A DNA stretch of 64,000 bases from Chloroflexota bacterium (GCA_965219505.1 OZ244775.1:2558815-2622814), one strand, 5' to 3'; shown: positions 1,093 to 17,930, counted from the stretch's first letter. Made by a program: numbers and translations. Notes: generated from the letters alone by a model not told the origin.

Positions 1093-4000
1093 ATGCGTGT
1101 CTCGTTAACGGCATGTGTTTGGTTGCCTAAGCTGATTTGGCGAGAGCTAAGGAGACCCACCGTGACCCGTTTTCTCACGTTGCTCCATACGATTACGCAA
1201 CGAAGCTCAAGGCAGTCAGTCTTGCCGGGTGTGGGGCAGCCTGGTATTGGGTTCGTGCTCGTGGTGCTGTTCAGCATGGTCTTCGCCATGGCTGCGCACG
1301 CGCAAACAGACAATGGGGAGAGTAGTTCGAGTGAGGTGCCCACCCTGACGATCGCGTCGTCGCACACTATTGCAGTGAAGGGCGAGGAGGTCACGTTTAC
1401 GATAACGGCGGACAGTGCGCCGACGACGGACATTTTGGTATACGTGCAGGTACAGGTAACGGTGCGCGAGCAGTCGTTGTATCAAAGCAAGGTTATGACG
1501 GTGTCCTTGGGAGCGGGAGAGCGGACGCTTGAGTTGCTAGCGGATACGGGAAGTGGCGGGGTAGGTGCGGGGATTCTGACACTTGACGTGAGTATTCTGG
1601 GGGGCGCTGGGTATCGCTTGGGCGATTCCCCGGTCGTGGGCATACGGGTGACGGATCCGCCCGCGGAAGCGGCGACTGGTAGCGGTGGAGCCGGCCAGAC
1701 GCCGCCGCCTGCGCCTGTGGGGTTCACGGCGAGTGCGGCAGCTGAGGACAGCATCGCGGTGAGCTGGGACGAACTGGCAGGGGTGTCGCACTATCGGCTG
1801 GAGGAGCAACTTGGGTCATTTAGTGTGGTGATGTGGCGTGTGGTGGGAGGACAGGGCAGTATCGCGCAGTCGAGCGCCACGGTCGCGGGATTGGCCGCCG
1901 GCACGACGTATCGGTACCGGGTGCGGGCGTACGGCGATGGGGAGGGCAATGCGGCAGCGTGGGGCGCTGCATCGGTAAGCGCTAGCGCCACGACCCAGGG
2001 GACTCAAACGCGGGCGCAAACTGCCAGGTCGGCGGTAGTGCGAGACGCACTGCCAGCGCCCACTGGGTTCAGCGCCACTGCGCCGAATTACTACACCATC
2101 AACGCGAGTTGGAACACCGTGACTGGGGCCAACTGCTATCGGTTTGGCATCTGGCTGGGCAATCCTGGGGGCTGGATATTCGTCAACATGAAAGATACAA
2201 GCTATTCGCGGACTAACGGTATAGCACGGGGCACGACGTACCAAATCCGCGTAGCAGCGACCAGTGATGAATGCCCAAACAATTCCATGTCAACTGCGGA
2301 GTGGGGGCCAGACCGGTGGGGGCAAGTGACCACGCCCCGACCCGATCCGCCGGCGCCCTCTGGGTTCAGCGGCAGCGCCACCGGCACACGGAGTATCAGT
2401 GCAAGTTGGACCCATGTGGGTGATACCTCCAAGTATGAGTTTAGCATAGAAATTGACGATCTCGGTGGCTGGCAAACTAACGAGCTTGCACGCTCCACTA
2501 CGAGCACTACGTGGAGCAGGGGTCTTGCCCCAGACACAACGTACAAAATTAGAGTGAGGGCCTATGGTGACGGCGGTGTCTATGCTGCAGACTGGGGCGA
2601 CTATAGTGAGGGTACGGTAACGACCGATTCGACGGTATCGCCGACAGAGACCCCGACGCCCACGCCAACACCCACGCCCACGCCGACGCCCACGCCGACA
2701 CCTACACCGACACCTTCAGGAACACCAGCGCCAGCGCCGGCCAGCGTTACGGCGGTCTTAGGTCAGACAGGCATCACGGTGTCCTGGACGTGGGGCACAG
2801 GAGTTAGTGCAGATATCGTAGACCACAAGGTGGAGTGGGAGGATAGCGCTCAGACGCACTCTGGCAGCAAAGCAGGGATCTCGCGTAATCTTGGAACGTG
2901 GGTGGTGACAGGACTAAAGTGCAGCAGCACCTATACCTTCAAGGTCAGCGGCCGGGGCGATGGCGACCCCTATAGTACAACCTACGGCCATAAGAAAGCA
3001 GGCACCGCCAGCACCAAGCTCTGCGCGCCTGAGCTCGACGTCATTCCGCTGCCGCAAAATAGTTCGTTTCGCAAGGCGTTGTTGACCTGGGATCGTGACG
3101 ACCGCGCCACCGGTGGGTATATCGTGCAAGTTCGAATAAAGGATGCGTCCTCGTGGCAAGACCTAGACGTCGTTCACACCTGGAACTCATATCAAGATTC
3201 TCCAGATGAAGATCCGTCGGTTGAGATAGAATTGGACATCATCGTAGATCCAATCGCAGTGGGACGTAATGAAGGCTTAGCCTTTCACGAGGCCTTTGAA
3301 TTCCGAGTGCAAGCTAAGCACGCTGAAGACAGTGCATTGGATAGTGACTTCAGCCATGTGACGATTGTGGATAGTCCCATCACCTCGGTGGTCGGAGACA
3401 GCAGTATGCAATCCGATAACAGAGGCAAGATGGTAATCAAGTGGCCAATGGTTCACAGTGACGCTCGATACACGGTGAGTTGGTACAAACTCGCTGGCGA
3501 CCATTCGCAGCTTTCCTGGCGTCCTAGTTCTACTCCAGTACCAAGAGACGATTGGGAGAGCATTGCCACATCCACCACACGTCTAGATCATACAGTCTAC
3601 ACTTCCACTCCAGGTCCTGGGGGTGACGTCTACGCAGTGCAACTCAACTACACAATCGCTGGTGAGAAATACTTCTCCGCGCGTGCGGCCTACGGTTGGG
3701 TATCGGACAGTTCACCCGACGGCAGCGGCAGGCGCGTTGCTACCTTTCCTCTGAACGACCCATTGCCTAACGGCACCTATGCATACCGCATCTGCTTAGA
3801 CACGTTTCCCCCTGACATGAATGATCAGGCAGACTGGCAAGAAATGATAGTAGAAGCTCTTGACCAATGGGAATCGGCCGTGCCCGATTATGTCACCATG
3901 AGTTTGGTAACCCATGAAGCAGGCACCCCTGATGCGGGAAAGAGCAAACCGTGCGCCAACAATGAGCCGGTTGTCAGGGCGATAAAGGACAGAATCGACG

Positions 4001-4554
4001 CGGAATACGCCGCATCACTTGCCAACCAGATAGATACGGGCACGATCCGGAAGTACGTGGAAGGCCTCAGCATTCATACGCGCTTTGTTGATGCCGACAA
4101 TGAACTGAACGAAATTCTGTTGGTTGAGCTTGACGAAGCAAGTAGTGATGTACGAGTCTTAGCCTTTAACGAACTCAGCGACCTCGCCGGTCTTGATTGC
4201 TTCACTGGTGAAGATGATCCGGTAGCCTGCGCACACCAGCCGGACGGCGTGCCAACCATTGACATCCTTATTAACAGTTCTAGGGCAGTAGACGGCCCCT
4301 TCACGCAATCTGTAGTAATGTTCAATACTTGCATTGAAGGCACCGGTACTCAGCCACTTCTGTGGTCAACGCTAGTACACGAAGCCGGTCACGCGCTGGG
4401 AGTTGACGGTGGCACTGATGGTAAAGGCCAGGAACGCTATCACTCGAACCTCCAGATGTCTACAATGCGAGAAGGGGGTGCGGGGAGCAAGGGATGTTCT
4501 CCTCATCCGTTCGACATCATGGCGATCACCGCGCTCTATCAGTACATACCTTGA
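1093..4554 (+). CDS. Secreted multidomain protein with fibronectin-III repeats, a TPTPTP... linker and a C-terminal matrixin-like zinc metalloprotease domain (HEAGHALG; Met-turn 'STMRE'; C-terminal helix 'CSPHPFDIMAITALYQ')
   Basis: There is a hydrophobic signal-like segment 'VLVVLFSMVFAMAAHA', so the true start is probably an internal GTG/TTG near 1255. At least five fn3-like units follow the pattern 'PxGFxAxAxxxxSIxxSW...GTTYxYRVRAYGDG'. A (TP)n linker spans 2650-2710. The HExxH motif plus the 'xDIxxIxxLYQ' tail resembles the matrixin 'DDIxGIQxLYG' terminal helix. Confidence 0.75.
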   Translation: MRVSLTACVWLPKLIWRELRRPTVTRFLTLLHTITQRSSRQSVLPGVGQPGIGFVLVVLFSMVFAMAAHAQTDNGESSSSEVPTLTIASSHTIAVKGEEVTFTITADSAPTTDILVYVQVQVTVREQSLYQSKVMTVSLGAGERTLELLADTGSGGVGAGILTLDVSILGGAGYRLGDSPVVGIRVTDPPAEAATGSGGAGQTPPPAPVGFTASAAAEDSIAVSWDELAGVSHYRLEEQLGSFSVVMWRVVGGQGSIAQSSATVAGLAAGTTYRYRVRAYGDGEGNAAAWGAASVSASATTQGTQTRAQTARSAVVRDALPAPTGFSATAPNYYTINASWNTVTGANCYRFGIWLGNPGGWIFVNMKDTSYSRTNGIARGTTYQIRVAATSDECPNNSMSTAEWGPDRWGQVTTPRPDPPAPSGFSGSATGTRSISASWTHVGDTSKYEFSIEIDDLGGWQTNELARSTTSTTWSRGLAPDTTYKIRVRAYGDGGVYAADWGDYSEGTVTTDSTVSPTETPTPTPTPTPTPTPTPTPTPTPSGTPAPAPASVTAVLGQTGITVSWTWGTGVSADIVDHKVEWEDSAQTHSGSKAGISRNLGTWVVTGLKCSSTYTFKVSGRGDGDPYSTTYGHKKAGTASTKLCAPELDVIPLPQNSSFRKALLTWDRDDRATGGYIVQVRIKDASSWQDLDVVHTWNSYQDSPDEDPSVEIELDIIVDPIAVGRNEGLAFHEAFEFRVQAKHAEDSALDSDFSHVTIVDSPITSVVGDSSMQSDNRGKMVIKWPMVHSDARYTVSWYKLAGDHSQLSWRPSSTPVPRDDWESIATSTTRLDHTVYTSTPGPGGDVYAVQLNYTIAGEKYFSARAAYGWVSDSSPDGSGRRVATFPLNDPLPNGTYAYRICLDTFPPDMNDQADWQEMIVEALDQWESAVPDYVTMSLVTHEAGTPDAGKSKPCANNEPVVRAIKDRIDAEYAASLANQIDTGTIRKYVEGLSIHTRFVDADNELNEILLVELDEASSDVRVLAFNELSDLAGLDCFTGEDDPVACAHQPDGVPTIDILINSSRAVDGPFTQSVVMFNTCIEGTGTQPLLWSTLVHEAGHALGVDGGTDGKGQERYHSNLQMSTMREGGAGSKGCSPHPFDIMAITALYQYIP

Positions 4555-4567
4555 AGGAAACTCATTG

Positions 4568-5878
4568 ATGATGGCACGAACGTGGTTGGCGCAATTTGGC
4601 CTATTGGTGGTGCTGGCATTTTCACTGGTTGGCTGCCAACAGCAGGCTGGAGTGGGGTCAGCGACGCCGGTGGTAGTGATCAGTACGCCAACGGTCGCAC
4701 CCTCGCCGACACCTGAAGACGTTACACACGACGTTGGCAGCCGTCCCTGTGGTCCGTTGGGGTATTCGATCAACCTTGGTGAGGGTAAGATCTTTCTCGC
4801 CTGGACGCCGGATGGCGCGCACCTGGTATTCAACTACTTTGCAGGAAAAGATGAGAGAGACTGGAACATCCTCACCGGTATCTGGCTGGTGGACGCAGCA
4901 GGCAGCCGCTTGGAGATGCTGGTCGACGCTAATCCCAGTCGCGAGTCCCAGTACGGTCACTATGCCGACGTATCGCCGGACGGCACGCAGCTTGTCTATG
5001 CAAGCTGTGAGTATCCCTATCCAGGGCGGGTAGATTTCAACTTCGAGGTGGCCATCATCGGTATAGACGGCACAGGGCAGCAGCGGCTGACGAAGAATCT
5101 GTATTTGGACCTATATCCCGTCTGGTCGCCGGATGGCAGCCGTGTCGCCTTCCTCTCCACGCGGCAGTACTTCACACCAAAGAGAGTGGCGCTCTACACC
5201 ATGGCGGCAGACGGCTCGGACGTGCAGCGTGTGGCTCCGCCCGGCAAGCATGGGCTGACCCTGGCGCCGCCGGTCTGGTCGCCAGATGGGGAGCGCTTAG
5301 CCTTCCAAGTTAACACCGGCTTCTTCGAAAACTTCGTAAGGGACTTGCACTTGGTAAGAGCCGACGGCTCGGAGATGACCTTGCTTGCGGAGGAAGTGGC
5401 TAGTGTGCCCGCCTGGTCGCCGGACGGGCAACGGCTGGCGGTGGCGAAGATTGCCGGCGATGACGTAGGGCTTTACACCCTGGCGGCGGACGGTTCTGAC
5501 CTACAGCTCATCACTACCATATTCAAGTTGGAAGTGATTCAATGGTATTCGACCTACAATGATTCGTTACCTATCGTTTCGTGGTCACCGGAGGGGTCAC
5601 AGATACTCTACTCCTGCAAAAAAAATGGTGCATGTATCATCGACTTGGAGAGCGGAAAGGTAAGGTTGGTCGAATATGAAATCTCAGCTTTGCTCGCACC
5701 CCACGCTGCGGCGTGGTCCCCCGATGGTACCCGCATCGCCATCTATACTCCAGGTGGTGATAGGCGACCGCAACTCTACACCGTGGCCCCCGACGGCACC
5801 GACCGCCGCCATCTGATACGCGTGGACGACGACGGCAACCTGGCGCCTGCCAATCCGCCGGAGGATGGATCGCAATGA
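4568..5878 (+). CDS. PD40/TolB-like beta-propeller lipoprotein (cassette 1 partner)
   Basis: RBS 'aaggaaa' lies before ATG 4568. A lipoprotein signal ends in 'LVGC'. It contains multiple 'YPVWSPDGSRVAF'-type PD40 repeats. The conserved C-terminus is 'DDDGNLAPANPPEDG'. The stop overlaps the next ATG in an ATGA arrangement. Confidence 0.75.
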   Translation: MMARTWLAQFGLLVVLAFSLVGCQQQAGVGSATPVVVISTPTVAPSPTPEDVTHDVGSRPCGPLGYSINLGEGKIFLAWTPDGAHLVFNYFAGKDERDWNILTGIWLVDAAGSRLEMLVDANPSRESQYGHYADVSPDGTQLVYASCEYPYPGRVDFNFEVAIIGIDGTGQQRLTKNLYLDLYPVWSPDGSRVAFLSTRQYFTPKRVALYTMAADGSDVQRVAPPGKHGLTLAPPVWSPDGERLAFQVNTGFFENFVRDLHLVRADGSEMTLLAEEVASVPAWSPDGQRLAVAKIAGDDVGLYTLAADGSDLQLITTIFKLEVIQWYSTYNDSLPIVSWSPEGSQILYSCKKNGACIIDLESGKVRLVEYEISALLAPHAAAWSPDGTRIAIYTPGGDRRPQLYTVAPDGTDRRHLIRVDDDGNLAPANPPEDGSQ

Positions 5879-8479
5879 ATTACGTTGCAACTACATATGG
5901 CAGTGAGACGGAGGTAGCGGTGAGCACGCACGCTTGTCCCACACCTACACAGGTACCGACAGTGGCGCCTACACTAACAGTCAGAGCCGCCGTCAGCGCC
6001 AAGTGGGTTTAGCGCCAGCGCGCCCAATCACTTCACAATCAACGCGAGTTGGAACAGGGTGAGTGGGGCCATCTGCTATCGGTTCGGCATCTGGATTGGC
6101 AATCCTGGGGGGTGGAAGTACCAATTTACGCGGAATACAAGCGACACGCGGACTGCGGGTATAGCCCGGGGCACGACGTACCAAATCCGCGTAGCTGCGA
6201 CCTCCGATGAATGCCCCAAGTCGACCATGATGACTGCGGAGTGGGGGCCAGACCGGTGGGGGCAAGTGACCACGCCCCGACCCGATCCGCCAGCGCCCTC
6301 TGGGTTCAGCGGCAGCGCCACCGGCACACGGAGTATCAGCGCGAGTTGGACCCATGTGGGTGATACCACCAAGTATGAGTTTAGCATTGAAGTTGCCAGT
6401 CTCGGTGGCTGGCAAACTCAGGAAGTTGCGCGCTCCACGACGAGCACTACGTGGAGCAGGGGTCTTGCCCCAGGCACAACGTACAACATTAGAGTGAGGG
6501 CCTATGGTGACGGGGGTGTTTATGCTGCAGAGTGGGGGCCCTATAGCACGGAGACGGTAACGACCGAAATACCGACCGCGACTGCGACACCCACGCCCAC
6601 GCCGACACCTACACCGACACCTTCAGGAACACCAGCGCCAGCGCCGGCCAGCGTTTCGGCGGTGCTTGAAGGAGACACCAGTGTCCGCGTCTCCTGGACG
6701 TGGGGCACAGGGGTTAGTGCAAATATCGTAGCCCACAAGGTGGCGTGGGAAGATAGCGCTCAGACTCACTCTGGCAGCAAAGCAGGGATCTCGCGTAATC
6801 TTGGAACGTGGGTGGTGACAGGACTAAAGTGCAGCAGCACCTATACCTTCAAGGTTAGCGGACGGGGCGACGGCGACCCCTATAGCACAACCTACGGCGA
6901 TAATAAAGCAGCATCCGCCAGCACCAAGCTCTGCGCGCCTGAAGTTGACGTCATCCCGCTGCCGCACCGTCAGGCGTTATTGAAATGGGACGAAATACGC
7001 CTTGCAGATGAATACACCGTTGAAGCGCGAATGCTTCAAACAGGGAATCGTGGCTGGGCGACACCACATGCTTGGAACGTCGCCGACCCTGACAGGACTT
7101 CTCTTACAGTAAATTTGAAGACTATTGTCAATTACAGAGGGTTACAACACTCACCATACGCATACGAATTCCGTGTAAAGGCAGTGGATACCGGCACAGA
7201 TCCAATTCCTAGCAGTGAGTACAGCAACAGAGTCATACTCATAGATACACCCATCCTGTCAGTAAATGGCCATAGCCCCGGCTCAGGAAATAACGATGCC
7301 CAAGCGTTGCTCACGTGGAAGGAGATAGTTCAAGAGGACGTCTTGGGTAGTGAATGGAGAGACTTTGCAGGTGGAGCTTATTCTTTCCGCTATCGCAGGC
7401 TTAGCGACGCAAGCAATCCGCACACAGACCTAAACTGGAAACCGGACAAGCCTTCGGAACCCATTACAACCGTCAGCAACCCGATCACAGAATTGAGGCG
7501 TGAGGAAATCTACGCCATACAGCTGATCTATACCGTGACGAAGCCGGGGGAGACAACCCCAACAACCTTCTATTCTGCCCGAGATGCCTTCGTTTGGCCG
7601 TCAGCTGAAGGCGCAGACGGAGGGGAGAGAGTCGCAACTTTTCCGCTTAAGAACGGCGGCAGCGTTTATATGTACCGCATTTGTGAAGACGGATTCCCTG
7701 CTGCAGACATTGGTGACTGGAAAGCTACCATTCAGCATGCCTTTGGATTGTGGAAAGCCTTCACAGATCTTGTAACCATGACGTACTTAGGGTCTACTTG
7801 TGCGGACTACTCTGACGCTATCCAAGACATAGATAGCAATTATAACGACAAGACAGGGGTACCCTTGACCCCAAGTCAGCTTGGGATGTTGGGGCAGTAT
7901 TTGAAACAGCTTGATGTCCTTACCAACGCTCAAACCGACGATAAAGAGTACAACGAAGTAATCATGGTTGATGACACTACAGGTGTCTACGCAGAGTTCA
8001 AAGACATAGGAATCTTCCCGGAGTTTGCATCGGAATTGGGGTTTGCTGGGTGTGTTTTTGACGTCGATACTACGGCTTGCGCCATTTCCCGTCATGTGGA
8101 CGCGCAAACAGGTTACATTACGGACATTCTGTTGCGTAGGAGCAGAAACAAATTCGCTCCATCGGTTATGCCGGGCGGTGATATTACAGTGGAGAGAAGT
8201 GACGTGCAATTCAACATTTGCCCTACGGGCCCAGGCTTCAACACCTATGCGACCCTGATTCATAAATCCGGCCATGCCTTGGGAATTAGAGGTGGAGCCG
8301 AGGATCCTGATTGGATCCCTCAAATGAAAGGACATCCTACGATTTCGAATACTGTTATGAACTATGAAAACACAAACTTGAAGGCGCGAGGACCAATACA
8401 TATGTTGCCAACCGAACCGGATTGTTCCCCACATCCGTTGGACATTCTGGCAATCTACGCCATCTATCAGACTGATTGA
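5875..8479 (+). pseudogene. 5'-truncated, frameshifted paralog of the 1093..4554 metalloprotease, with HKSGH replacing HExxH
   Basis: An ATG at 5875 overlaps the TolB-like stop and opens a 45-codon frame (5875..6012) that terminates at TAG. Homology to 2040-4554 continues in another frame, open from 5978 with a GTG at 6059. This implies a 1-nt indel between about 5980 and 6010. The matching residues are PSGFSASAPNHFTINASW versus PTGFSATAPNYYTINASW. The catalytic motif reads 'IHKSGHALG' (Glu->Lys). The C-terminus is 'PDCSPHPLDILAIYAIYQTD'. Confidence 0.55.
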
Positions 8480-9852
8480 AGTGTAAGGACTCTCTTGCTA
8501 TGAAGTGGCTCAAGCATTCATTAGTAGTCGCACTTGCCATTGTGGTGTGTCTTGGCATGACCGCGTGTGCGCAAGAATTAGGTGAAGGTTCCGTCCAAGT
8601 TGCTCAGACTACCCCAAAGCCTTCCCCGCAGCCAACTGTCTCGCCGACCCCGGCTCCCAGAACCGAACCGACCGTATCGTGTGGGCCGCCATCTGGGGAA
8701 GAGCTTTATGAATTCTCTCCCTTCAGCGACATTTTCCTGGAATGGACGCCGGATGGCTCACAGCTAATGTTCTCATACAGCACTGACGTTTGGTTCGTTG
8801 ATGTTGCCGGTACCAATTTGCGCTTGTTGGTGGATGCCGATCCTCACAGCCACTACCACCGCTTCCTCTATGGCTTCCATGCAGAAATTTCGCCGACGGC
8901 TCACAGGTCGTCTTTTCGACCTGCGATTACCCCTGGGACGCTCAGAGCTCTGCCGCTAGGCATGGCAATGCGTTGCTCTCACTGCCTGTATACTCACCTG
9001 ACAAGTACGATATTGCCTTGATTGACATCGACGGTGGCGCGCCACAGCGACTCACTAAGAGTCGATACTTGGACCACTTTCCGGCATGGTCGCCCGATGG
9101 AAGTCGTATCGCTTACCTCCACTTCCTTGATAGTTCCCGCATGGGAATGCCCCCCCAGAACCATCCGAACGATGACGGCAAACGGCTCCGAGGTGCAGGA
9201 GGTTCAGAAGACACGCAGTTTGGCAATTGCTGCCGCGCCGCTGGCGTGGTCGCCAAATGGAGAGAAGTTGGCATTTCTCATATATGACTGGGAGAACTGG
9301 CCCCGTCAATACACCCTCTACACTGCCCTCGCCGGTGGCTCCGAGTTGCGAAAAGTCGCTGAGAACGTCGTAAGCGACGCGTCATGGTCGCCGGATGGAC
9401 AGCAATTCGCACTAGCAAGGCTCGTCGGTGAGGAAGTTGGGCTGTACACGCTGGCCGCTGACGGCTCCGACCCAAAGCTGATAGCCACAATTACCGATTT
9501 GGAGAAATATGTATTTTGGACCAGGGACGATCGGTCCTGGACGGGCACGGTGGCGTGGTCGCCGGATGGCACCAAACTACTCTATTCCTGCCATAAAGGC
9601 GCATGTTTGATCGATGTCAAGACTGGACAGAGCATTGGGTTGATATCCGGCATACCAAAATGGCTTCACTCCCACGTCGCGGCGTGGTCGCCGGATGGAA
9701 CCCGCATTGCGATCTACACGCCCGGGGATGAAATCAACGACATACCTTTGCGGCTGTTTTCGGTGGACCCACATGGCACCGACCCCCGCGACCTGGTGCG
9801 CCTAGGTGACGACGGCAACCTGGCGCCCGCAAATCCTCCTGAGGATGAATAG
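8476..9852 (+). pseudogene. PD40/TolB-like propeller lipoprotein, disrupted by at least two frameshifts
   Basis: Homology to the other propeller paralogs runs through three different frames (8476.., 8973.., 9022..9852). The signal peptide 'LAIVVCLGMTAC' and the conserved end 'GDDGNLAPANPPEDE' are both present. Confidence 0.6.
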
Positions 9853-9854
9853 TG

Positions 9855-9986
9855 ATGAACAATGCCAAAGCGTCTCCCGTCCAAATGACGAGTGAAGGCA
9901 GTTCCCGAAAGGTCAGCGAGCCGGACTGTTCGCCGCATCCGATGGACATCATGGCGATATACGCACTGTATCAGACAGTCGACTGA
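9855..9986 (+). CDS. Mini-ORF (43 aa), a metalloprotease C-terminal stub: MNNAKASPVQMTSEGSSRKVSEPDCSPHPMDIMAIYALYQTVD
   Basis: The start overlaps the upstream stop (TAGTGATG). It retains the Met-turn-like 'VQMTSEG' and the terminal-helix motif shared with the big protease (LQMSTMREGGAGSKGCSPHPFDIM...). Confidence 0.4.
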   Translation: MNNAKASPVQMTSEGSSRKVSEPDCSPHPMDIMAIYALYQTVD

Positions 9987-10001
9987 GCTAAGGGCATTGC
10001 T

Positions 10002-11330
10002 GTGCGCCGAATGTGGTTAGTGTTTCTAGCGTTCGCTTTGTGCACTGTCGCTTGCGCGGAGGAGCATGTGGAATATGTCGCGACTATAGAGTTCAACTAT
10101 CCGTGCGGTGTACACATGCATGTCGCCACCCCTGGCTCATATCACGATCACTTCCTGGCATGGACGCCGGACGGCGTTCATCTTATATTCGATGCAACAA
10201 CGCCAAGCGGCGCTTCTCGCGCATATTATCGCTGGCGCAGCGCTATGTGGAAGGTAAATGCTGAGGGACGCGCGGTGCGCATGCTCGTTGACGTGAATCC
10301 CGGGCATCCTGTCAAGTACGGTCTGTACGGAGACGTGTCCCCGGACGGTACCCGGATCGTCTATGCCACCTGCGAGTTTCCGACCGAAGGCAAAGTGACC
10401 CACTCTGAGCGAGAGAACTACCACTACGAGATCGCCGTATTGGACTTGGACAGCGGCAAGCGGCAGCGTCTCACGCACAACAAATACCTCGACCATTACC
10501 CAGTGTGGTCGCCGAACGGCAGCCGCATTGCCTTCGTCGCGAATCCTCCCAGAGAGGGTCACATCAATGAGGGTGGTCACGACGCGCGACTCTATTCGAT
10601 GTCGCCGGATGGAACGGACGTTCAGAACATGGTATCCATGCTGCCCATTCTTAGCTATTCGCAGGTAGAGGCTAGCCGGGATGATGCGGCAGTACCCAAG
10701 CTCAGAGGAGTTGCACTGTTTCCGCCAGCGTGGTCACCGGACAGTAAGAAGCTGGCGTTTTTGGTATATGAAGGGGAGTACGCTCCGCTTCGGAAGATAC
10801 TCTACACCGTGCGGGTAGATGGTTCGGAGTTGACGCGGATAGCGGAGAACGTAGTGAGCGTGGCGTCGTGGTCGCCGGACGGTCAACGGCTCGCGGTGGC
10901 CAAGTTTGCCGGCGATAACGTCGGGCTCTTCACTCTGGCAGCGGACGGTTCTGACGAAAAACTGATTACTACCATCACTGACAAAGCAAAGTTATTCCAA
11001 GATAGTCCGAAAAGCCGGCATCAGTTCAAAGTACGTACGTTGTCGTGGTCGCCGGATGGGTCGGCGTTTCTCGTTATCTCAGATGAGTTTGAGTTATTCG
11101 TCATTCAACCGGACGGCAAGGGCGTGCACAAAATGAGCCTGGGCTTTGAGCCTGAACACACCGGCCGAACCATCGCTGCCTGGTCGCCGGATGGCACGCG
11201 CGTCGCCCTCTACGATGGAAACAGTCGGCTCGTGACCATAAGTCGTGACGGCACAGACCGCCGCAACTTGATACACGTGGACGACGCCGGCAACCTCGTG
11301 CCAGCGATCCCGCGAGAGTTGGCACTATGA
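10002..11330 (+). CDS. PD40/TolB-like beta-propeller lipoprotein
   Basis: Signal 'LAFALCTVAC', the 'YPCG' N-terminal motif, PD40 repeats 'DHYPVWSPNGSRIAF', and the conserved C-terminus 'DDAGNLVPAIPRE'. Confidence 0.75.
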   Translation: MRRMWLVFLAFALCTVACAEEHVEYVATIEFNYPCGVHMHVATPGSYHDHFLAWTPDGVHLIFDATTPSGASRAYYRWRSAMWKVNAEGRAVRMLVDVNPGHPVKYGLYGDVSPDGTRIVYATCEFPTEGKVTHSERENYHYEIAVLDLDSGKRQRLTHNKYLDHYPVWSPNGSRIAFVANPPREGHINEGGHDARLYSMSPDGTDVQNMVSMLPILSYSQVEASRDDAAVPKLRGVALFPPAWSPDSKKLAFLVYEGEYAPLRKILYTVRVDGSELTRIAENVVSVASWSPDGQRLAVAKFAGDNVGLFTLAADGSDEKLITTITDKAKLFQDSPKSRHQFKVRTLSWSPDGSAFLVISDEFELFVIQPDGKGVHKMSLGFEPEHTGRTIAAWSPDGTRVALYDGNSRLVTISRDGTDRRNLIHVDDAGNLVPAIPRELAL

Positions 11331-11458
11331 TAAACCAAAGCGCATCATCTCCTGTTCACCTGGTCGTTGATGGCCGCCGTGACAGGTTCAGCAATCCGGA
11401 CTGTTCGCCGCACCCTCTTGACATCATGGTGATATTTGCAATTTATCAGACGTATTGA
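11327..11458 (+). CDS. Mini-ORF (43 aa): MINQSASSPVHLVVDGRRDRFSNPDCSPHPLDIMVIFAIYQTY
   Basis: ATGA overlap with the upstream propeller stop. Carries the same C-terminal motif as the other stubs. Confidence 0.4.
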   Translation: MINQSASSPVHLVVDGRRDRFSNPDCSPHPLDIMVIFAIYQTY

Positions 11459-11470
11459 TGGAGAGAGAAC

Positions 11471-12745
11471 ATGATTCCTTTGACACGACCTTGGTTGAGA
11501 TATTTGGCGCTATTGCTGGCCTTGGGCTTTGTCGGCTGCTCAAGTGTGGATCCACAACATAATGTCGTAGTCGATGCAGACTATCCGTGTGGGCCGTTTA
11601 TGTATAGAGACGGTCTATTCCTCAATGATCACGTTATTGCATGGACTCCTGACGGCTCTCAGCTCTTGTTCAACTATGGCACGTTGATTTGGGTCGTTGA
11701 TGCCCAAGGCACCCAGCTGCGCCCACTTGTTGACGTAAACCCAGCAGTGGCGTATTCGGGACATCTACTTCGGTTTGGTATTCATCTCGACATCTCTCCA
11801 GACGGTACACGCGTCGTCTTTACTACCTGCGAGTACGAAATTGAGCCCAAACCGGCACGACCACTTTTCAGTGAACGAGAAGCGTATCACTACGAAATCG
11901 CCGTTATCCATCTGGATGGCACCGGACAGCAGCGACTCACAGTAAACCCAGATCTCGATCACTATCCGGTATGGTCGCCGGATGGTAGCCGTATAGCCTA
12001 CATTGGGGAGAGGCCTGATGAAGACTCTCGTCGCCGGAAGAAAGGCCTCTACACGATGGCGGCGGATGGGTCGGACGTGCGGCAACCAGCGGTCCCATCC
12101 TCGATTGTGTTTGCTCTCAATTCGCCAGTGTGGTCACCAGACGGTGAGAGCTTAATGTTGGAGGGATACGAGGGTGGGACTAGTCCAGCGACTCATATTT
12201 ATTTGGTATCTACCGAGGGTTCGCAGTTGTCGCGGATACCGGTTCAGTCTCCGGACTATCGCAGTTTCATGGTGTGGTCGCCAACATTTGACCGGCTTGC
12301 CGCAGCAAAGCTTGAAGGCGAGGAGCTAACCCTCGTAATCCTGGCGGCGGACCCTTCAAACCCGATGTTGCTCACCAAGATTACTCATCGAAGTACGTTT
12401 GAGAGAAGAGATCACCCCTTTAGATATGGGATACGCACGATTTTATGGGCACCTGAAGGGACCCACATACTTTTCACTTGCGAGCCAATAATATGCGTGG
12501 TCAACGTAGAGGATGGACAGGTAATTGGGGTGGTAGAGGAAGCAAATGCTCGGGTTCGCGATTTCTACTATGCGGCCTGGGTGCCCGACGGCTCGCGGAT
12601 CACGATATATACGCCTGGAGATCCGCTTGAAGAGGTTCCCCCAGAACTCTACACGATCGCCCGAGATGGCACTGATCGCCGTGACCTGATCCGTCTGGAT
12701 GACGACGGCAACTTGGTGCCAGCCAATCCGCCAAAGGATGAATAG
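11471..12745 (+). CDS. PD40/TolB-like beta-propeller lipoprotein
   Basis: Signal 'LALGFVGC', the 'YPCGPFMY' N-terminal motif, PD40 repeats, and C-terminus 'DDDGNLVPANPPKDE'. Confidence 0.75.
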   Translation: MIPLTRPWLRYLALLLALGFVGCSSVDPQHNVVVDADYPCGPFMYRDGLFLNDHVIAWTPDGSQLLFNYGTLIWVVDAQGTQLRPLVDVNPAVAYSGHLLRFGIHLDISPDGTRVVFTTCEYEIEPKPARPLFSEREAYHYEIAVIHLDGTGQQRLTVNPDLDHYPVWSPDGSRIAYIGERPDEDSRRRKKGLYTMAADGSDVRQPAVPSSIVFALNSPVWSPDGESLMLEGYEGGTSPATHIYLVSTEGSQLSRIPVQSPDYRSFMVWSPTFDRLAAAKLEGEELTLVILAADPSNPMLLTKITHRSTFERRDHPFRYGIRTILWAPEGTHILFTCEPIICVVNVEDGQVIGVVEEANARVRDFYYAAWVPDGSRITIYTPGDPLEEVPPELYTIARDGTDRRDLIRLDDDGNLVPANPPKDE

Positions 12746-12747
12746 AA

Positions 12748-12846
12748 ATGAACTTTGACCGGAAACTGTAAGTCCCTGGCGATGCCCCCGACTGTTCGCC
12801 GCATCCGTTTGACATCTTGGCAATTTACGCACTCTATCAGACTTGA
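12748..12846 (+). pseudogene. Disrupted mini-ORF: MNFDRKL* followed in-frame by ..GDAPDCSPHPFDILAIYALYQT*
   Basis: It is homologous to the 14310..14411 copy, but TAT has become TAA at codon 8 ('ctgtaagtc' versus 'ctgtatgtc'). The conserved tail is still intact downstream. Confidence 0.35.
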
Positions 12847-12879
12847 TAGGCACTGCCGAACAAGAAAGTGTAGGGGAGC

Positions 12880-14310
12880 ATGCAACGGTTTTGGTCAGCA
12901 GCGCGATGGGTACTGCCGCTCGTCCTACTACTAGGAATTGCCAACTGCAACTCGCTGGACACTAAAGTTGACCAAAGCACGACCATAGCCGAGCTCCAAT
13001 ACCAGTGTGGGCCATTCTTCTCTGAATTTGGTCTCGGATACCAGGACCTCTTCCTTGAATGGACGCCGGACAGCACCCAGATCATATTCAATTATACGGT
13101 GGAAGGCCGACCGGACATCAATCGTCACTTCAGGGCAGCGGCTTGGGCTGTTGATAGTCAGGGTACTTGGGTGCGCATGCTTATTGACGCTAGTCATGGG
13201 AACGCTCCATTGTATGGTCTCCACGCTGACGTGTCGCCGGACGGCGCCCGTATCGTCTATGGCAGTTGCGAATTCCCAACGGAAAGTATATCCGTGAAAC
13301 CCTATGATTCGGAACGCAAAAGAATCCGCTACGAAATTGCCGTAATCAACTTGGACGGCACGGGGCAGCAGCGTCTCACGGAGAATGAGCATATTGACCA
13401 CTACCCGGTGTGGTCGCCTGACGGCAGCAGAATCGTCTTCATCGCGAATCCCCGCACCCCAGGCAATGAAGGCGGTATGGAACTCTTCATTATGGCGGCG
13501 GATGGCTCAGACGTACGTCGGGTTGCTTCCACGTTGATTAGGGAAAGCACAGATACAGAGGGATTTTACTACTGGCGCACAAACTGGTTCTACACGAACC
13601 GTGGAATAGAGGTCGGCGACTCTGAAGAGCCGTGGCTGGCAGCAGTGGCTATGGCGCCGCCGGTGTGGTCTCCGGACGGAGAGCGCTTGGCGTTTCTGGT
13701 GTACGCGGGGTCGTCGTCTCGGCGAATTCGCCACTTGCTATATACGGTGCGTGCTGACGGATCGGAAATGACGAAGATTGCAGAGACGGCGTATATGGCA
13801 GAGCTTAATGAAAACCCTGTATTGGTTTATATCGCGATGGGTGTGCCCTCGTGGTCGCCGGACGGCGAGTACCTCGCCTTTGTAGGGGTTGACGAGGCAG
13901 GCGAGGCGAGTGGTGTCTACACCGTTCGTCCTGACGGCACAGATCTAAAACAGGTGCTACAACCGCAGGGGCCAGATTGGAACGTGTTCCACGTGTCGTG
14001 GTCGCCGGATGGAACAGAGATACTGGTCGCCTCCCAGCAAGGGCTTCACTTCATCCAACCGGATGGCAGTGGTCTGCGAATGGTGGACGAGAAGGCTGCC
14101 TTCGATGCTTACGACATGACCTTAGGGATTGCTGTAGCGTGGTCGCCTGACGGTGGACGCATCGCCCTTTACATGCCGGGAAGCGCCTACCAAAACGTAT
14201 CGCCTCAGCTCTACACAATTGCCCGAGACGGCACCGATCGCCGCGACTTGATTCGACTGGATGACGGCGGCAACATCTCGCCAGCCAATCCGCCACAGGA
14301 TGAATCGTGA
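12880..14310 (+). CDS. PD40/TolB-like beta-propeller lipoprotein
   Basis: Signal 'LLLGIANC', the 'YQCGPFF' N-terminal motif, PD40 repeats, and C-terminus 'DDGGNISPANPPQDES'. Confidence 0.75.
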   Translation: MQRFWSAARWVLPLVLLLGIANCNSLDTKVDQSTTIAELQYQCGPFFSEFGLGYQDLFLEWTPDSTQIIFNYTVEGRPDINRHFRAAAWAVDSQGTWVRMLIDASHGNAPLYGLHADVSPDGARIVYGSCEFPTESISVKPYDSERKRIRYEIAVINLDGTGQQRLTENEHIDHYPVWSPDGSRIVFIANPRTPGNEGGMELFIMAADGSDVRRVASTLIRESTDTEGFYYWRTNWFYTNRGIEVGDSEEPWLAAVAMAPPVWSPDGERLAFLVYAGSSSRRIRHLLYTVRADGSEMTKIAETAYMAELNENPVLVYIAMGVPSWSPDGEYLAFVGVDEAGEASGVYTVRPDGTDLKQVLQPQGPDWNVFHVSWSPDGTEILVASQQGLHFIQPDGSGLRMVDEKAAFDAYDMTLGIAVAWSPDGGRIALYMPGSAYQNVSPQLYTIARDGTDRRDLIRLDDGGNISPANPPQDES

Positions 14311-14411
14311 TGAACCATAACCGGAAACTGTATGTCGCTGAAGGTGCTCCCGACCGTTCGCCGCACCCGTTCGACATCTTGGCGATATTTGCACTGTATC
14401 AGACGTACTAG
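14310..14411 (+). CDS. Mini-ORF (33 aa): MNHNRKLYVAEGAPDRSPHPFDILAIFALYQTY
   Basis: TGATG overlap with the upstream stop. The conserved tail carries a Cys->Arg substitution (cgt versus tgt). Confidence 0.4.
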   Translation: MNHNRKLYVAEGAPDRSPHPFDILAIFALYQTY

Positions 14412-14430
14412 ACACAAGGTGTGAGAGAAC

Positions 14431-17148
14431 GTGTTGATTGCTGGGTCGAAAGGTTTGACGAGAATAGCAGGGCTGCTGCTGCTTTTGTTGCTTCTTGGCG
14501 TGGTCGGTTGCGCCACCGCAGAAGAGGTTGACGACATCCGCACCGAAGAGGTCGACGACGCCCGCACTGAAGAGGTTGAGGATGACGGCCGTATCTACCC
14601 GTGTAGCCCGTATTTTCTCGGGGTCGACGAAGATGCAAAGCATTCTCCGGTCTTCAAACCTAGGTTTCAAGATTTCTTATTGGAGTGGACGCCCAATGGT
14701 GCTCAGATTCTATTTGGCGTCTTCGAATTCCGCAGGGCTCATGAGATCCGCGTGGTGAATGCGCAGGGCTCACGCTTGCGCACGCTCGTAGATCCTGCAA
14801 GGGGCAACCCCGCATATGGTTTTCATTTTGACGTATCGCCGGACAGTACCCAGGTTGTCTATTCCTCCTGCGAGTTCCAAATGGAAGGCTCCGCTGGTAT
14901 TGAATCACTTCCGGAACGGGGAAGGTATCACTATGAGATCGCCGTCATCAACCTCGACGGCACGGGACGGAAGCGGCTCACGGCGAACGCATACCTCGAC
15001 CACTACCCGGCTTGGTCGCCCGACGGCAGCCGCATCGCCTTCATCGCGGAACCAACTGGCGGGTTAGAAAAGCCTATTGAGCGCAACTTGGTGCTCTACA
15101 CGATGACGGCGGATGGATCGGACGTGCAACAGTTGGCGCCGCCGGCGGCGAGCAACTTGGCTTTCACGCCGCCGCTCTGGTCGCCGACTGGGGAGCACGT
15201 GGCATTCATCGTGAAGGAGAGAGGCGGACCGTTCTTTTACGCCCTTTACACTGTCCGGCTAGACGGATCGGAGTTGACGCGCATTGCGCGCATAGCGCAG
15301 GCGACCGTAGTCTTTCCGGTACCTCGTGATGCTCCTCCGTTGGTGGCCTTGCCGTCATGGTCGGCGGATGGAGCTTATCTCGCCTTCCTGGCGCAGGAGG
15401 ACGGAAGAAACTACAGCATCTCCACCGCCCGCGCCGACGGCACTGAACTGCGCCAGGCGCTGGTATTGCCGGAGCCGGAGTCGCTTCTGAAACCGCACCG
15501 CCTGCTGTGGTCGCCGGATGGCGAACATCTAGCTCTGGTCATGTTTGATGAACAGGTCGCAATCAGTAGCTTTTACCCAGACGTAAACGATCCGATCGCC
15601 TTAGATGAATCCGGCCGTATCTACATTGCACGGGTGGACGGCAAAGGCCAGACGCGGATACTGCCAGCGCATGGACCCTGGTGGAACCCTTCCCTGGTGT
15701 CTTGGTCGCCGGACGGCTCTGAGCTTCTTCTTGTCTCGCGGCGTCAAGTGTTTCTCATCCGGCCGGACGGCGGCGAGTTACGCCGCTTGGGCGTGGGGCC
15801 GCAACACTTATTTTCCGCTTTCGCAGGAAGTCAATGGCACAACGTTGCGTGGTCGCCGGACGGCGCGCGCATTGCGCTCTATGATGCCGGGCCGAGGAGC
15901 GTCGATTTCCTGGGCATTTTCACGGTCGTGCCGGATGGGTCCGATCCGCGCGGATTGATGTGGGCAGGTAGCGAAATCGGCGATTCACGGGACCTAGAGC
16001 CCTGGCATCTTCCCCAGCCGGTTACGCCTGTAGACCCGGCAGCGTGCACAACGGGGGTTGTCGTGCCACGGCCTGGGTCCAATCCCGGCTTGGTCGCGGA
16101 CTGCAAGACGTTGCTCGGTTTGCGAGATGCCCTGGCGGGGCGCGCGACGTTGAACTGGAGCGGCCAGACACCTATCGCCGAGTGGGAAGGCATTACTATC
16201 GACGACCGGCCCCGACGCGTGACCGCACTGTTGTTGAGAGATCGCGGCCTCACCGGCGTGCTCCCACCGGAACTCGGCCAGCTCACTGCATTACGGCGGT
16301 TAGAGCTGTCTTCAATGGTCGAACCATACCGCGGCGTGCCGAACAGGCTGCATGGCAGCATTCCGGCTGAACTGGGTAATCTCAGCAAACTTGAGTATCT
16401 GGCCCTCGGCGGGAACCACCTGAGCGGAGAGATTCCGCCGGAGTTGGGCAATCTGACGTACCTTCGGTACTTATTATTGGATAGGAACTATCTGCGCGGT
16501 GGCATTCCGCCTGAATTGGGCGGGCTCACCAATCTTAGTGGACTGCACCTCGACAACAATGCACTAAGTGGCTCGATTCCAACAGAGTTGGGCGGGCTCA
16601 CCTACCTTAGTGGACTGCACCTCGACAACAATGCGCTTAGTGGCTCGATTCCAACAGCGTTGAGCCGTCTCACAAAACTTGAGTATCTGCACCTCGACAA
16701 CAACGAACTGAGTGGCCCCATACCGATGGAGTTGGGCGGGAATACGGAGCTTTATTCGTTGAATCTTGCCTTCAATGATCTGAGTGGGACCATACCGCCG
16801 GAGTTGGGAAGACTTACGGAACTCGATTGGCTGGAACTTCGGAACAACAATTTGAGCGGGCCTATCCCGCCTGAGCTGGGAGGTCTTTCGAGCCTCCGTC
16901 TTCTAGATATTGGAAACAATAGTCTGAGCGGGCCTATTCCACCGGAGTTGGGCGGTCTTGGTTATCTCCTTTACCTAAATCTCTCCTTCACTGAGATAAC
17001 TGGAAGCCTGCCTCCCGAACTAGAGCAACTCCGAATTGGGAAGTATCTGCACTTGAGGCATACCAATCTCAGCGGCTGCGTGCCGAGAGAATTGCCGGAG
17101 ATTTGGGTAGAAGCAAGCGGTCTGGAACGGTGTAAAGCAAGTGAGTGA
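14431..17148 (+). CDS. PD40/TolB-like beta-propeller lipoprotein fused to a C-terminal plant-type leucine-rich-repeat domain
   Basis: Signal 'LLGVVGC' and an acidic 'EEVDDxRTEEV' repeat at the N-terminus. PD40 repeats occupy the N-terminal ~500 aa. About 13 tandem 24-residue LRRs of the form 'LxxLxLxxNxLSGxIPxELGxL' follow from aa ~600. Confidence 0.75.
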   Translation: MLIAGSKGLTRIAGLLLLLLLLGVVGCATAEEVDDIRTEEVDDARTEEVEDDGRIYPCSPYFLGVDEDAKHSPVFKPRFQDFLLEWTPNGAQILFGVFEFRRAHEIRVVNAQGSRLRTLVDPARGNPAYGFHFDVSPDSTQVVYSSCEFQMEGSAGIESLPERGRYHYEIAVINLDGTGRKRLTANAYLDHYPAWSPDGSRIAFIAEPTGGLEKPIERNLVLYTMTADGSDVQQLAPPAASNLAFTPPLWSPTGEHVAFIVKERGGPFFYALYTVRLDGSELTRIARIAQATVVFPVPRDAPPLVALPSWSADGAYLAFLAQEDGRNYSISTARADGTELRQALVLPEPESLLKPHRLLWSPDGEHLALVMFDEQVAISSFYPDVNDPIALDESGRIYIARVDGKGQTRILPAHGPWWNPSLVSWSPDGSELLLVSRRQVFLIRPDGGELRRLGVGPQHLFSAFAGSQWHNVAWSPDGARIALYDAGPRSVDFLGIFTVVPDGSDPRGLMWAGSEIGDSRDLEPWHLPQPVTPVDPAACTTGVVVPRPGSNPGLVADCKTLLGLRDALAGRATLNWSGQTPIAEWEGITIDDRPRRVTALLLRDRGLTGVLPPELGQLTALRRLELSSMVEPYRGVPNRLHGSIPAELGNLSKLEYLALGGNHLSGEIPPELGNLTYLRYLLLDRNYLRGGIPPELGGLTNLSGLHLDNNALSGSIPTELGGLTYLSGLHLDNNALSGSIPTALSRLTKLEYLHLDNNELSGPIPMELGGNTELYSLNLAFNDLSGTIPPELGRLTELDWLELRNNNLSGPIPPELGGLSSLRLLDIGNNSLSGPIPPELGGLGYLLYLNLSFTEITGSLPPELEQLRIGKYLHLRHTNLSGCVPRELPEIWVEASGLERCKASE

Positions 17149-17351
17149 TTGACACGCCGTAGCAAAGGGGCACGACAAGATTGCTCTTGGTTGTTGAGCC
17201 ACTTGCCAGCCGGATGGGTCCCTACGCCACCAACCACAAGGTATGCCTAATTCCGCTAAGGGCAGAGAGAAAACAATCCACTCTAGGTGTCATTGGAACA
17301 AGAGCAAGCCGCTACTTTCGAAGTGGTCTCTCCAGCCTGTCTCTCCCCCTA

Positions 17352-17930
17352 TCAGCCTCCGCTATCAGGCGTTGGCATCGAGTAAGGACAGGGAGTAATA
17401 CGGTCACCGACGGTGATGCCGTAGCGGGCGGCTGAACCAGCCGCTAGTTCCAGCACGTGCGTGATCGGTTCGGTCGGGTGGTAGCGCGGGAGTTGGTCGT
17501 CAGGTGTATCCTTCGGCGGGGGCAGGACCGCGGTATCTATTTGCACCACAGTGCCGTCGCGTATCCAGATGAGGTCGAGGGCAAACTTCATACCCGGCAT
17601 CCAGAATGAAGGCTGCCGAGGCTCGGGAAAGACGAACAGCATGCCGGCGTCCTCCGGCAGGCCGGGATACCCGCTCAGCCCTGCGGCCCGCTCCTGCGGC
17701 GTATCGGCGACTAGCACGTTGATGCGCGCCTCGTTGATGCAGAGCACCGCTTCATAGGCAAGAGGCGTCCCTTCTACCGGCGCGGATGGCGTCTCCGCAC
17801 CCTCGAGCGGCATCGTTCCAGGCGGGCCGCAGCCCAGCACGATGACGCTCGCGATCATCAGCACGGCGCCTGCCAGCGTTTTCTCTATGGTGCGATTTAG
17901 ACTCGTTTTGTTAGTGCACCAAACTATCAC
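17352..17930 (-). CDS. DUF192-family (COG1430-like) lipoprotein
   Basis: Lipobox 'VLGC' and a 'FWMPGMKFALDLIWI' segment resembling DUF192. Confidence 0.45.
   Translation of the reverse strand: MIVWCTNKTSLNRTIEKTLAGAVLMIASVIVLGCGPPGTMPLEGAETPSAPVEGTPLAYEAVLCINEARINVLVADTPQERAAGLSGYPGLPEDAGMLFVFPEPRQPSFWMPGMKFALDLIWIRDGTVVQIDTAVLPPPKDTPDDQLPRYHPTEPITHVLELAAGSAARYGITVGDRITPCPYSMPTPDSGG

Follow-up and report, generated by a model that had tools for sequence, protein, structure and literature searches.

Four short open reading frames (ORFs; stubs m1 to m4) lie between positions 9,855 and 14,411 of a 64,000-nucleotide stretch of DNA from a Chloroflexota bacterium (GCA_965219505.1 OZ244775.1:2558815-2622814; the whole stretch is hereafter called the window), each directly after a PD40 propeller gene (n = 4). 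These stubs are probably relic 3' ends of matrixin-like protease genes in a recombining protease-propeller array, with a coding appearance that is kept by recombination and not by the function of a peptide. Their identity as 3' ends of matrixin-like metzincin protease genes is shown at the level of sequence. A first-pass annotation of the window had reported four mini-frames here, whose translations run colinear with the final ~40 residues of two large proteases, P1 and P2, and re-translation bore this out (m1, MNNAKASPVQMTSEGSSRKVSEPDCSPHPMDIMAIYALYQTVD; m2, MINQSASSPVHLVVDGRRDRFSNPDCSPHPLDIMVIFAIYQTY; m3, MNFDRKL*VPGDAPDCSPHPFDILAIYALYQT; m4, MNHNRKLYVAEGAPDRSPHPFDILAIFALYQTY). Three of the four frames are open, as it had said (m1, m2 and m4; m3 has a TAA), and its list of codons was correct (Ile as atc, att or ata, Ala as gcg, gca or gcc, Thr as act, aca or acg, with D, Y and Q invariant). 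The overlap that it described between stub ATG and upstream stop is seen in m2 (ATGA) and m4 (TGATG); in m1 and m3 the ATG lies 2 nt past the stop.

Stubs, junctions and the protease family

Each stub contains a Met-turn, a variable loop and a 57-nt core, which encodes the catalytic domain's last helix ('PDCSPHPxDIxAIYALYQT'); the zinc site is absent. The invariant Cys of the core is lost in m4 (TGT to CGT). A 27-nt degenerate core pattern gave four stub matches against 0 expected by chance, and the 57-nt core also occurs once at the end of P1 and once at the end of P2 (Table 1). All stubs begin at the Met-turn codon (GTGATGAAY), which is placed right at the propeller stop. With loop and terminal helix kept behind it, the internal in-frame deletion of the protease body suggested by the first-pass annotation is supported in substance. 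The stub stop and the next propeller start are separated by 12-33 nt, a gap that holds a GGAG-type ribosome-binding site, and a Shine-Dalgarno-like GAGGA is found in the last propeller codons ('E-D-E') ahead of the stub ATG.

Propeller genes of the window and of five related arrays nearly all have the sequence (G)TGATGAAY(TAY) right after their stop, regardless of what comes next. Read in the propeller frame, the junction consists of tandem stops (TAG TGA TGA or TGA TGA) that contain the stub ATG (9846-9857, 11325-11333, 12740-12750 and 14305-14315); read in the +2 frame it is V-M-N-Y, and GTGATGAACTAC is the usual Met-turn DNA in intact protease genes too. Three types of successor were found at the junction. 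In the first, the post-Met-turn loop and core follow, giving the short stubs. In the second, a segment starting ~22 residues before HExxH follows, giving remnants of ~90 residues. These form a second remnant class of 87-90 codons from the propeller stop ('MNYSSFNPCPNTNDDYNYPKSSLVHEAGH...'; L065 and L066 in OZ219802.1, L034 in OZ244145.1, L010 and L038) that keeps HExxH, Met-turn and terminal helix, lacks the N-terminal half of the catalytic domain, and occurs four times consecutively in OZ219802.1. In the third, a 13-23-codon ORF 'M(K/N)Y(S/V)AATP..' comes before either a longer protease gene or a remnant. The window ORF at 5875-6012 is of this kind, and it is homologous to the short ORFs of type 'M(K/N)Y(S/V)A(A/T)T..' that relatives carry behind their propeller stops.

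The short-type loop of m3 and m4 ('MN(F/H)(D/N)RKLYV') matches the loops of longer protease ORFs ('MNYNRKVYVP', 'MNYNRKLML'), and the long-type loop of m1 and m2 is a separate 22-codon lineage, so that at least two loop lineages share the same junction. Either deletion between two GTGATGAAYTAY copies or the spread of one junction by recombination would explain this, and we infer a microhomology-mediated origin for the loss of the protease body. A programmed frameshift from propeller into stub was rejected as a candidate, since the stub frame is open for just 1-2 codons upstream of the propeller stop in m1 and m4 and there is no slippery site. A promoter or terminator within the core was also rejected: a scan of 4400-17400 gave no enrichment and no core site, and the TTGACA in 'F/L-D-I' is separated by a 20-nt spacer from TATCAG. 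The same scan found no promoters or terminators between the genes, which makes a single operon plausible. An Rfam scan returned no relevant RNA element, and the stub peptides had no match in Pfam or NCBIfam.

The label of Met-turn and helix given to the stubs by the first-pass annotation was right, given the evidence below that groups this domain with the matrixins. In the family alignments (A1-A3, with P1 3790-4551 as reference), HExxHxxG is invariant or nearly so (H197, E198, H201 and G204 in A2 and A3), the canonical third zinc-ligand position is Gly or variable, and the presumed third ligand is a His (H218), conserved in all or nearly all members, 17 residues past the second His (H201). 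The near-invariant Met M226, in 'HPxIxDSVMNY', lies 8 residues past H218, and the stub ATG is the M226 codon. Other invariants are 'C-S-P-H-P-x-D-I-x-A-I-x-A-x-Y-Q' and several Cys. P1 and P2 gave no Peptidase_M10 match in Pfam at E ≤ 0.01. Two homologues pass the cut-off of 24 for Matrixin (PF00413), namely P0060 (27.3 bits) and P0087 (32.2 bits); the P0060 match covers profile positions 112 to 158 of 159, i.e., through the terminal helix, and this protein is named a matrixin family metalloprotease by NCBI. A profile built from 14 catalytic domains found just matrix metalloproteinases (MMPs), serralysin and myroilysin in the PDB, all weakly (E 0.012-0.3), and a PDB sequence search with P1 alone gave no match. 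An AlphaFold2 (AF2) model from 69 sequences reached a pLDDT of 83.3 and a pTM of 0.83, with the last helix at DIMAITALYQ (a model from 13 sequences only, pLDDT 44, was not used). With this model Foldseek returned MMP and karilysin catalytic domains as its top ~30 matches, at a probability of ≤0.98, a TM score by target of 0.58-0.62 and an E value of only 0.065.

The family comprises about 1006 clusters at 50% identity, nearly all of its database entries are unnamed, and among the 150 best-scoring representatives the domain is almost always at the C-terminus of the protein. The family has the look of a matrixin-like subfamily not yet described, whose members always have a PD40 lipoprotein gene as partner. 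In MMPs, the C-terminal helix of the matrixin (MEROPS M10A) catalytic domain reads 'DDIxGIQxLYG'. The window family shares with M10A the HExxHxxG helix, an invariant His with an invariant Met eight residues behind it, and an amphipathic helix at the end ('DIxAIYALYQ'). Unlike M10A, it has its third His away from the canonical HExxHxxGxxH spot (~17 residues after the second His), an invariant 'CSPHP' ahead of the helix, and a consistent C-terminal placement with a PD40 lipoprotein gene as partner. Unlike typical matrixins, most members, P1 and P2 included, are missed by Pfam.

Recombination, decay and codon conservation

To map recombination, 17 blocks of ≥90% identity between arrays were delimited and their 32 ends compared with 2000 randomisations. 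Block ends fell in or at a core in 11 of 32 cases (0.77 expected; randomised maximum of 6) and at a propeller stop in 7 of 32 (0.47 expected). One block of 96% identity joins a full-length protease core (OZ244145_B 3363) to a stub core (OZ244145_A 8137) of the same genome, showing that stub cores and functional cores are exchanged. In stubs of the 42-43-codon family, sequence divergence shows that loop and core have discordant histories: between m1 and L075b the proportion of synonymous differences (pS) is 0.25 in the loop and 0.92 in the core, and between m1 and L075a it is 0.59 and 0.16. Recent conversion from P1 or P2 within the window was considered and rejected, as the stub cores resemble one another more than they do P1 or P2, both of which lack the TCG-CCG codons common to the stubs. 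This pattern does not indicate a donor inside the window, and it is in relatives that exchange with cores elsewhere was shown. It is also worth noting that L076 has a core truncated mid-way (1555-1599, 'TDILAITALYQYIP', with a tail of the P1 type) immediately before a propeller of the pr1 type, so deletion or crossover end points fall inside the core as well.

A lookup with m1 led to L074, a contig of 13.8 kb from a different sample with 99.3-99.5% identity to the window. Its stubs differ from those of the window at just two points, the TAA of m3 being TAT and the invariant His of m2 being Gln, and all three stubs recoverable in L074 are intact. Colinearity of the two strains ends at 12821 (+34 nt in the m3 core), beyond which L074 continues with the second half of another core and another propeller, 95.7% identical to a module of OZ219802.1 and 68% identical to pr5 of the window. 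The pr4 genes of the two strains have four synonymous codon differences. In pr3, 28 mismatches (12 synonymous and 15 non-synonymous codons) are clustered at 10221-11293, and the preceding 2.5 kb is identical in both strains; the cluster is either an imported recombination tract or a sign of diversifying selection on the propeller.

To establish how far the core is distributed, 185,579 species genomes were scanned with a degenerate core pattern, which was found in 73 loci, nearly all of them in Dehalococcoidia or other Chloroflexota metagenome-assembled genomes. A protein census by hidden Markov model, biased to well-kept cores, counted 51 stubs, 18 mid-length remnants and 32 full-length ends. 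Remnants fell into length classes of 0, 13, 22, about 70 and 150-260 codons, and a propeller gene came next after the core in 82 of 90 testable cores. Entropy at the three codon positions was 0.65/0.38/1.29 in stubs versus 0.45/0.30/1.43 in full-length ends, i.e., the three-base periodicity of intact genes is kept, with some relaxation at positions 1 and 2. In 14 of the 51 stubs there was no in-frame ATG, GTG or TTG covering the core. These scored as well in the core as the rest, and a start codon was missing from four of the five best cores. The stub frame relative to the propeller was +2 in 16 cases, +1 in 6 and 0 in 1.

Across nine arrays with 35 short inter-propeller junctions, 18 could be read from an ATG through the core and 17 could not, because a stop came early, the frame was shifted, the ATG was missing, or the core was degenerate or absent (15 versus 16 after removal of four near-duplicates). 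Loss of the reading frame in relatives, which the first-pass annotation had proposed as a test of its functional reading, was therefore found in roughly half of the copies, and the frame was kept in the other half. In OZ244145.1, whose array has the closest synteny to the window, one stub has lost its stop, three have early stops (two of these with eroded cores too) and one is an intact ORF in which the core Tyr is replaced by Cys. Stubs with an intact frame also carry changes at invariant positions: Cys is replaced by Arg in m4, and relatives show Pro-to-Ser, His-to-Arg and Tyr-to-Cys changes. The many independent lesions in the stubs indicate that the peptide is dispensable. Retention of the stubs as functional peptides, one of the two options left by the first-pass annotation, is made unlikely by the disruption of about half of the related stubs, by core quality that does not depend on a start, by the nonsense/sense and His differences of L074, and by the exchange of cores through recombination.

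The ratio of non-synonymous to synonymous rates (dN/dS) was estimated on the 18-codon core, with the adjacent 36 C-terminal codons of the propeller for comparison. Between stubs of the window, the proportion of non-synonymous differences (pN) was 0.05-0.13, pS was 0.25-0.61 and dN/dS was 0.06-0.42; codon-position skew over all four stubs was marginal (P = 0.06-0.14). The codon alignment proposed by the first-pass annotation gave a low ratio for pairs in the window. Recent stub pairs had 10 synonymous versus 10 non-synonymous substitutions. In a wider stub set the counts were 27 synonymous versus 43 non-synonymous, with nine gap events. Recent pairs are far looser than intact genes, yet not fully neutral.

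Several observations weigh against a purely relic origin of this pattern. Stub cores are more conserved than the adjoining propeller C-termini (pN 0.15-0.35, pS 0.46-0.70), synonymous changes make up 6 of 9 differences between the m3 and m4 cores (P = 0.005-0.025), and the non-synonymous rate is lower in core than in loop (Fisher P = 0.013). Even in the recent pairs an excess of synonymous changes persists to some degree (10 of 20 substitutions, P = 0.014-0.048, plus three indels). At least seven stubs of 42-43 codons hold their length though the loop is nearly saturated (loop pN about 0.47), L075 carries three intact 43-codon copies consecutively, and a neutral 40-codon ORF would, by a rough estimate, be half-disrupted after ~4-6% divergence. 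That estimate implies that many stubs are young, that they are repeatedly renewed, or that there is weak selection for an intact ORF. The many intact ORFs despite saturated loops could reflect frequent renewal by recombination, and residual selection on ORF integrity, e.g., for translational coupling, could also contribute. By themselves, the window statistics favour constraint on the encoded residues. The synonymous excess within the window is real but weak, and ancestry together with the swapping of cores with protease genes can account for it; recombination between loop and core also confounds a selection test on stub lineages. We therefore infer that recombination and ancestry, not peptide function, lie behind the low dN/dS.

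The relic reading can be put as a sequence of steps. An ancestral array of tandem protease-propeller modules would have undergone birth-and-death turnover, in which the protease body was lost from the propeller stop to the Met-turn codon, so that Met-turn ATG, loop and core remained and the stub core led straight into the ribosome-binding site of the next propeller. The resulting unit of core plus propeller would then have been copied and shuffled by homologous recombination, with crossovers in the core and at the propeller-stop junction. Stub cores may have been swapped repeatedly with others, including the selected cores of intact proteases, which would give a codon-like pattern without translation, while single stubs gained stops, frameshifts, start losses and radical substitutions.

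Alternative explanations and comparable systems

A broader alternative, which we regard as rather unlikely, is that core and junction are the homology arms of a cassette exchange by which highly divergent surface PD40 lipoproteins are swapped, gained and lost among strains and species, with protease and propeller perhaps forming a cognate inhibitor- or immunity-like pair, or that the stub ORFs are kept for coupling or as peptides. The reading in which cores and propeller-stop junctions are anchors selected for swapping propeller cassettes, diversifying surface lipoproteins much as silent-cassette or orphan-module systems do, has a low probability by our estimate. It would fit the concentration of break points in cores and junctions, the presence in one species of two propeller alleles, 68% identical, joined within a core, the low identity of propeller paralogues (29-49%) between conserved flanks, and the excess of pr3 differences (12 synonymous, 15 non-synonymous) just downstream of 2.5 kb of identity. 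However, any repeated array is expected to cross over at its most conserved segments with no need of selection, no recombinase gene lies nearby, degenerate or missing cores are tolerated, and second-order selection for evolvability is generally weak.

Stubs might instead be spacer ORFs for translational coupling, whose translation would bring ribosomes to the start of the next propeller gene, with an open frame and not the peptide under selection and with the core conserved through ancestry and recombination. An ATG at or near the stop and a short stop-to-start gap in all four stubs, the (G)TGATGAAY motif at nearly every propeller stop of six arrays whatever comes after, the constant length of the intact 42-43-codon family around an almost free loop, and the plausible single operon are all consistent with coupling. 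We nonetheless think it unlikely, given that the ORF is gone at half of the junctions with the downstream propeller still intact and that every propeller has its own GGAG-type ribosome-binding site; the tandem stops that TGATGA forms in the propeller frame could alone be enough to explain its conservation. Quite improbable is a set of functional 33-43-residue micro-proteins whose helix acts in trans (by docking to the propeller, or by complementing or regulating the protease): low core dN/dS in the window, intact stubs (3 of 4 in the window, 3 of 3 recoverable in L074 and three in L075) and the prediction of similar 42-47-residue ORFs by gene callers elsewhere would agree with it, but the residues kept are invariants of the enzyme (C, S, P, H, P, D, I, A, I, Y, Q), which inheritance fits better, these same residues undergo radical substitution in otherwise intact stubs, 17 of 35 junctions are untranslatable through the core, cores without a start are equally good, and the peptides belong to no Pfam or NCBIfam family.

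Displaced gene ends are known from other arrays. In Vibrio cholerae, type VI secretion system (T6SS) clusters hold arrays of orphan immunity genes among which displaced 3' ends of effector genes are found. These arrays are mosaics that strains have assembled through homologous or homology-facilitated recombination with one another (Kirchberger et al. 2017, PMC5361080). The window resembles them in having P1 and pr1 followed by stub-propeller units, and in strain-level replacement of modules. Unlike them, it has no secretion-system context and its hosts are Chloroflexota; no other part of the upstream gene is as conserved as its fragment, and the same junction occurs in many genomes. Where T6SS pairs have an effector-immunity relation, the protease-PD40 pair shows genetic linkage alone (82 of 90 cores followed by a propeller). 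Polymorphic toxin systems likewise have recombining cassettes (Zhang et al. 2012, PMC3482391), and Rhs loci, as summarised in PMC5361080, carry strings of orphaned 3' regions downstream of the main gene (Jackson 2009, Koskiniemi 2014). As far as that summary describes Rhs and CdiA orphan modules, they share with the stubs a short conserved stretch, common to the fragments, that is the recombination point; there, the orphan is a complete variable toxin domain behind a conserved motif, whereas in the window it is the last 20-40 codons of a conserved catalytic domain. Such a fragment cannot restore a different enzyme, and, unlike in Rhs/CdiA, the variable element in the window is the complete downstream propeller gene. 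Varied remnant lengths, independent stops and frameshifts, missing copies and relaxed invariant sites are as in ordinary truncated pseudogene fragments; the recurrence of the same junction and of a well-preserved 57-nt core in many genomes is not, with the core renewed by recombination and not simply decaying. By analogy, the stubs as displaced gene ends would be ordinary, of a kind known from orphan-module arrays.

A literature search found no description of modular matrixin-PD40 arrays in Chloroflexota, and these appear to be previously undescribed. As peptides the stubs are probably unimportant, and their value is as markers. They mark a large unannotated family that lies in rapidly recombining modules of a secreted matrixin-like protease and a PD40 lipoprotein in Dehalococcoidia and related Chloroflexota, with propeller alleles down to 68% identity inside one species and break points at a 57-nt conserved gene end. 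They also call for caution, as recombination with functional copies can yield a low dN/dS on short repeats, which is then no proof of a micro-protein.

Layout of the array

Genes in the window are ordered P1-pr1-(P2-pr2)-m1-pr3-m2-pr4-m3-pr5-m4-pr6 (Table 1), and several other genomes have the same plan. The propellers are lipoproteins with a lipobox Cys, 29-49% identical to one another. In related arrays they have no clean one-to-one orthologues, barring pr1 (75%) and pr5 (62%) in OZ219802, where the upstream element is of another class. m1 itself and similar called ORFs (42-47 residues) are present in the protein database and in other assemblies.

Table 1. Coordinates of array features within the window
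Feature	Position	Strand	Remarks
P1, full-length secreted protease	1093..4554	+	N-terminal hydrophobic segment, FN3 repeats, C-terminal matrixin-like HEAGH domain; core 4489-4545
pr1, PD40 beta-propeller lipoprotein gene	4568..5878	+	partner of P1
45-codon ORF (MNYVATTYGSE...)	5875..6012	+	ATG overlaps pr1 stop; enters P2 out of frame
P2, 5'-truncated protease copy	6059..8479	+	core 8417-8473
pr2, propeller gene with in-frame stop and frameshifts	8476..9852	+	pseudogene
m1, intact stub	9855..9986	+	43 codons; core 9921-9977
pr3, propeller lipoprotein gene	10002..11330	+	
m2, intact stub	11327..11458	+	43 codons; core 11396-11452; invariant His codon 11411-11413
pr4, propeller lipoprotein gene	11471..12745	+	
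m3, disrupted stub	12748..12846	+	33-codon layout; TAA at 12769-12771 (codon 8); core 12787-12843
pr5, propeller lipoprotein gene	12880..14310	+	sister strain has a 68%-identical alternative here
m4, stub with intact frame	14310..14411	+	33 codons; core 14349-14405; invariant Cys replaced by Arg
pr6, propeller and leucine-rich-repeat lipoprotein gene	14431..17148	+	closes the array

Homology of P2 to P1 at the DNA level (85%) begins at 5994, corresponding to P1 position 2054. P2 lacks a signal peptide and reads HKSGH at the catalytic motif (Glu to Lys), against HESGH in a relative's copy; it is probably a pseudogene. pr2 has an in-frame stop (9019-9021) and a stretch in a shifted frame (~8894-9122), both of which are also found in L074, and judged by these lesions the entire P2-pr2 module looks dead. 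In L074, an 86-nt segment of P2 (7647-7732) is present twice in tandem, which breaks the frame. Residues 333-364 of pr1 (window 4403-5878) gave a sub-threshold match to the Pfam family 'Inh' (serralysin/metzincin inhibitor; 18.7 bits against a cut-off of 25), which is probably spurious and not evidence of protease-inhibitor pairing. A terminal gene of the pr6 type, with the conserved tail '..EIWVEASGLERC..', also ends related arrays (OZ244145_B 10929-13049 and L075 16050-18188), and this shared last gene suggests a conserved array boundary.

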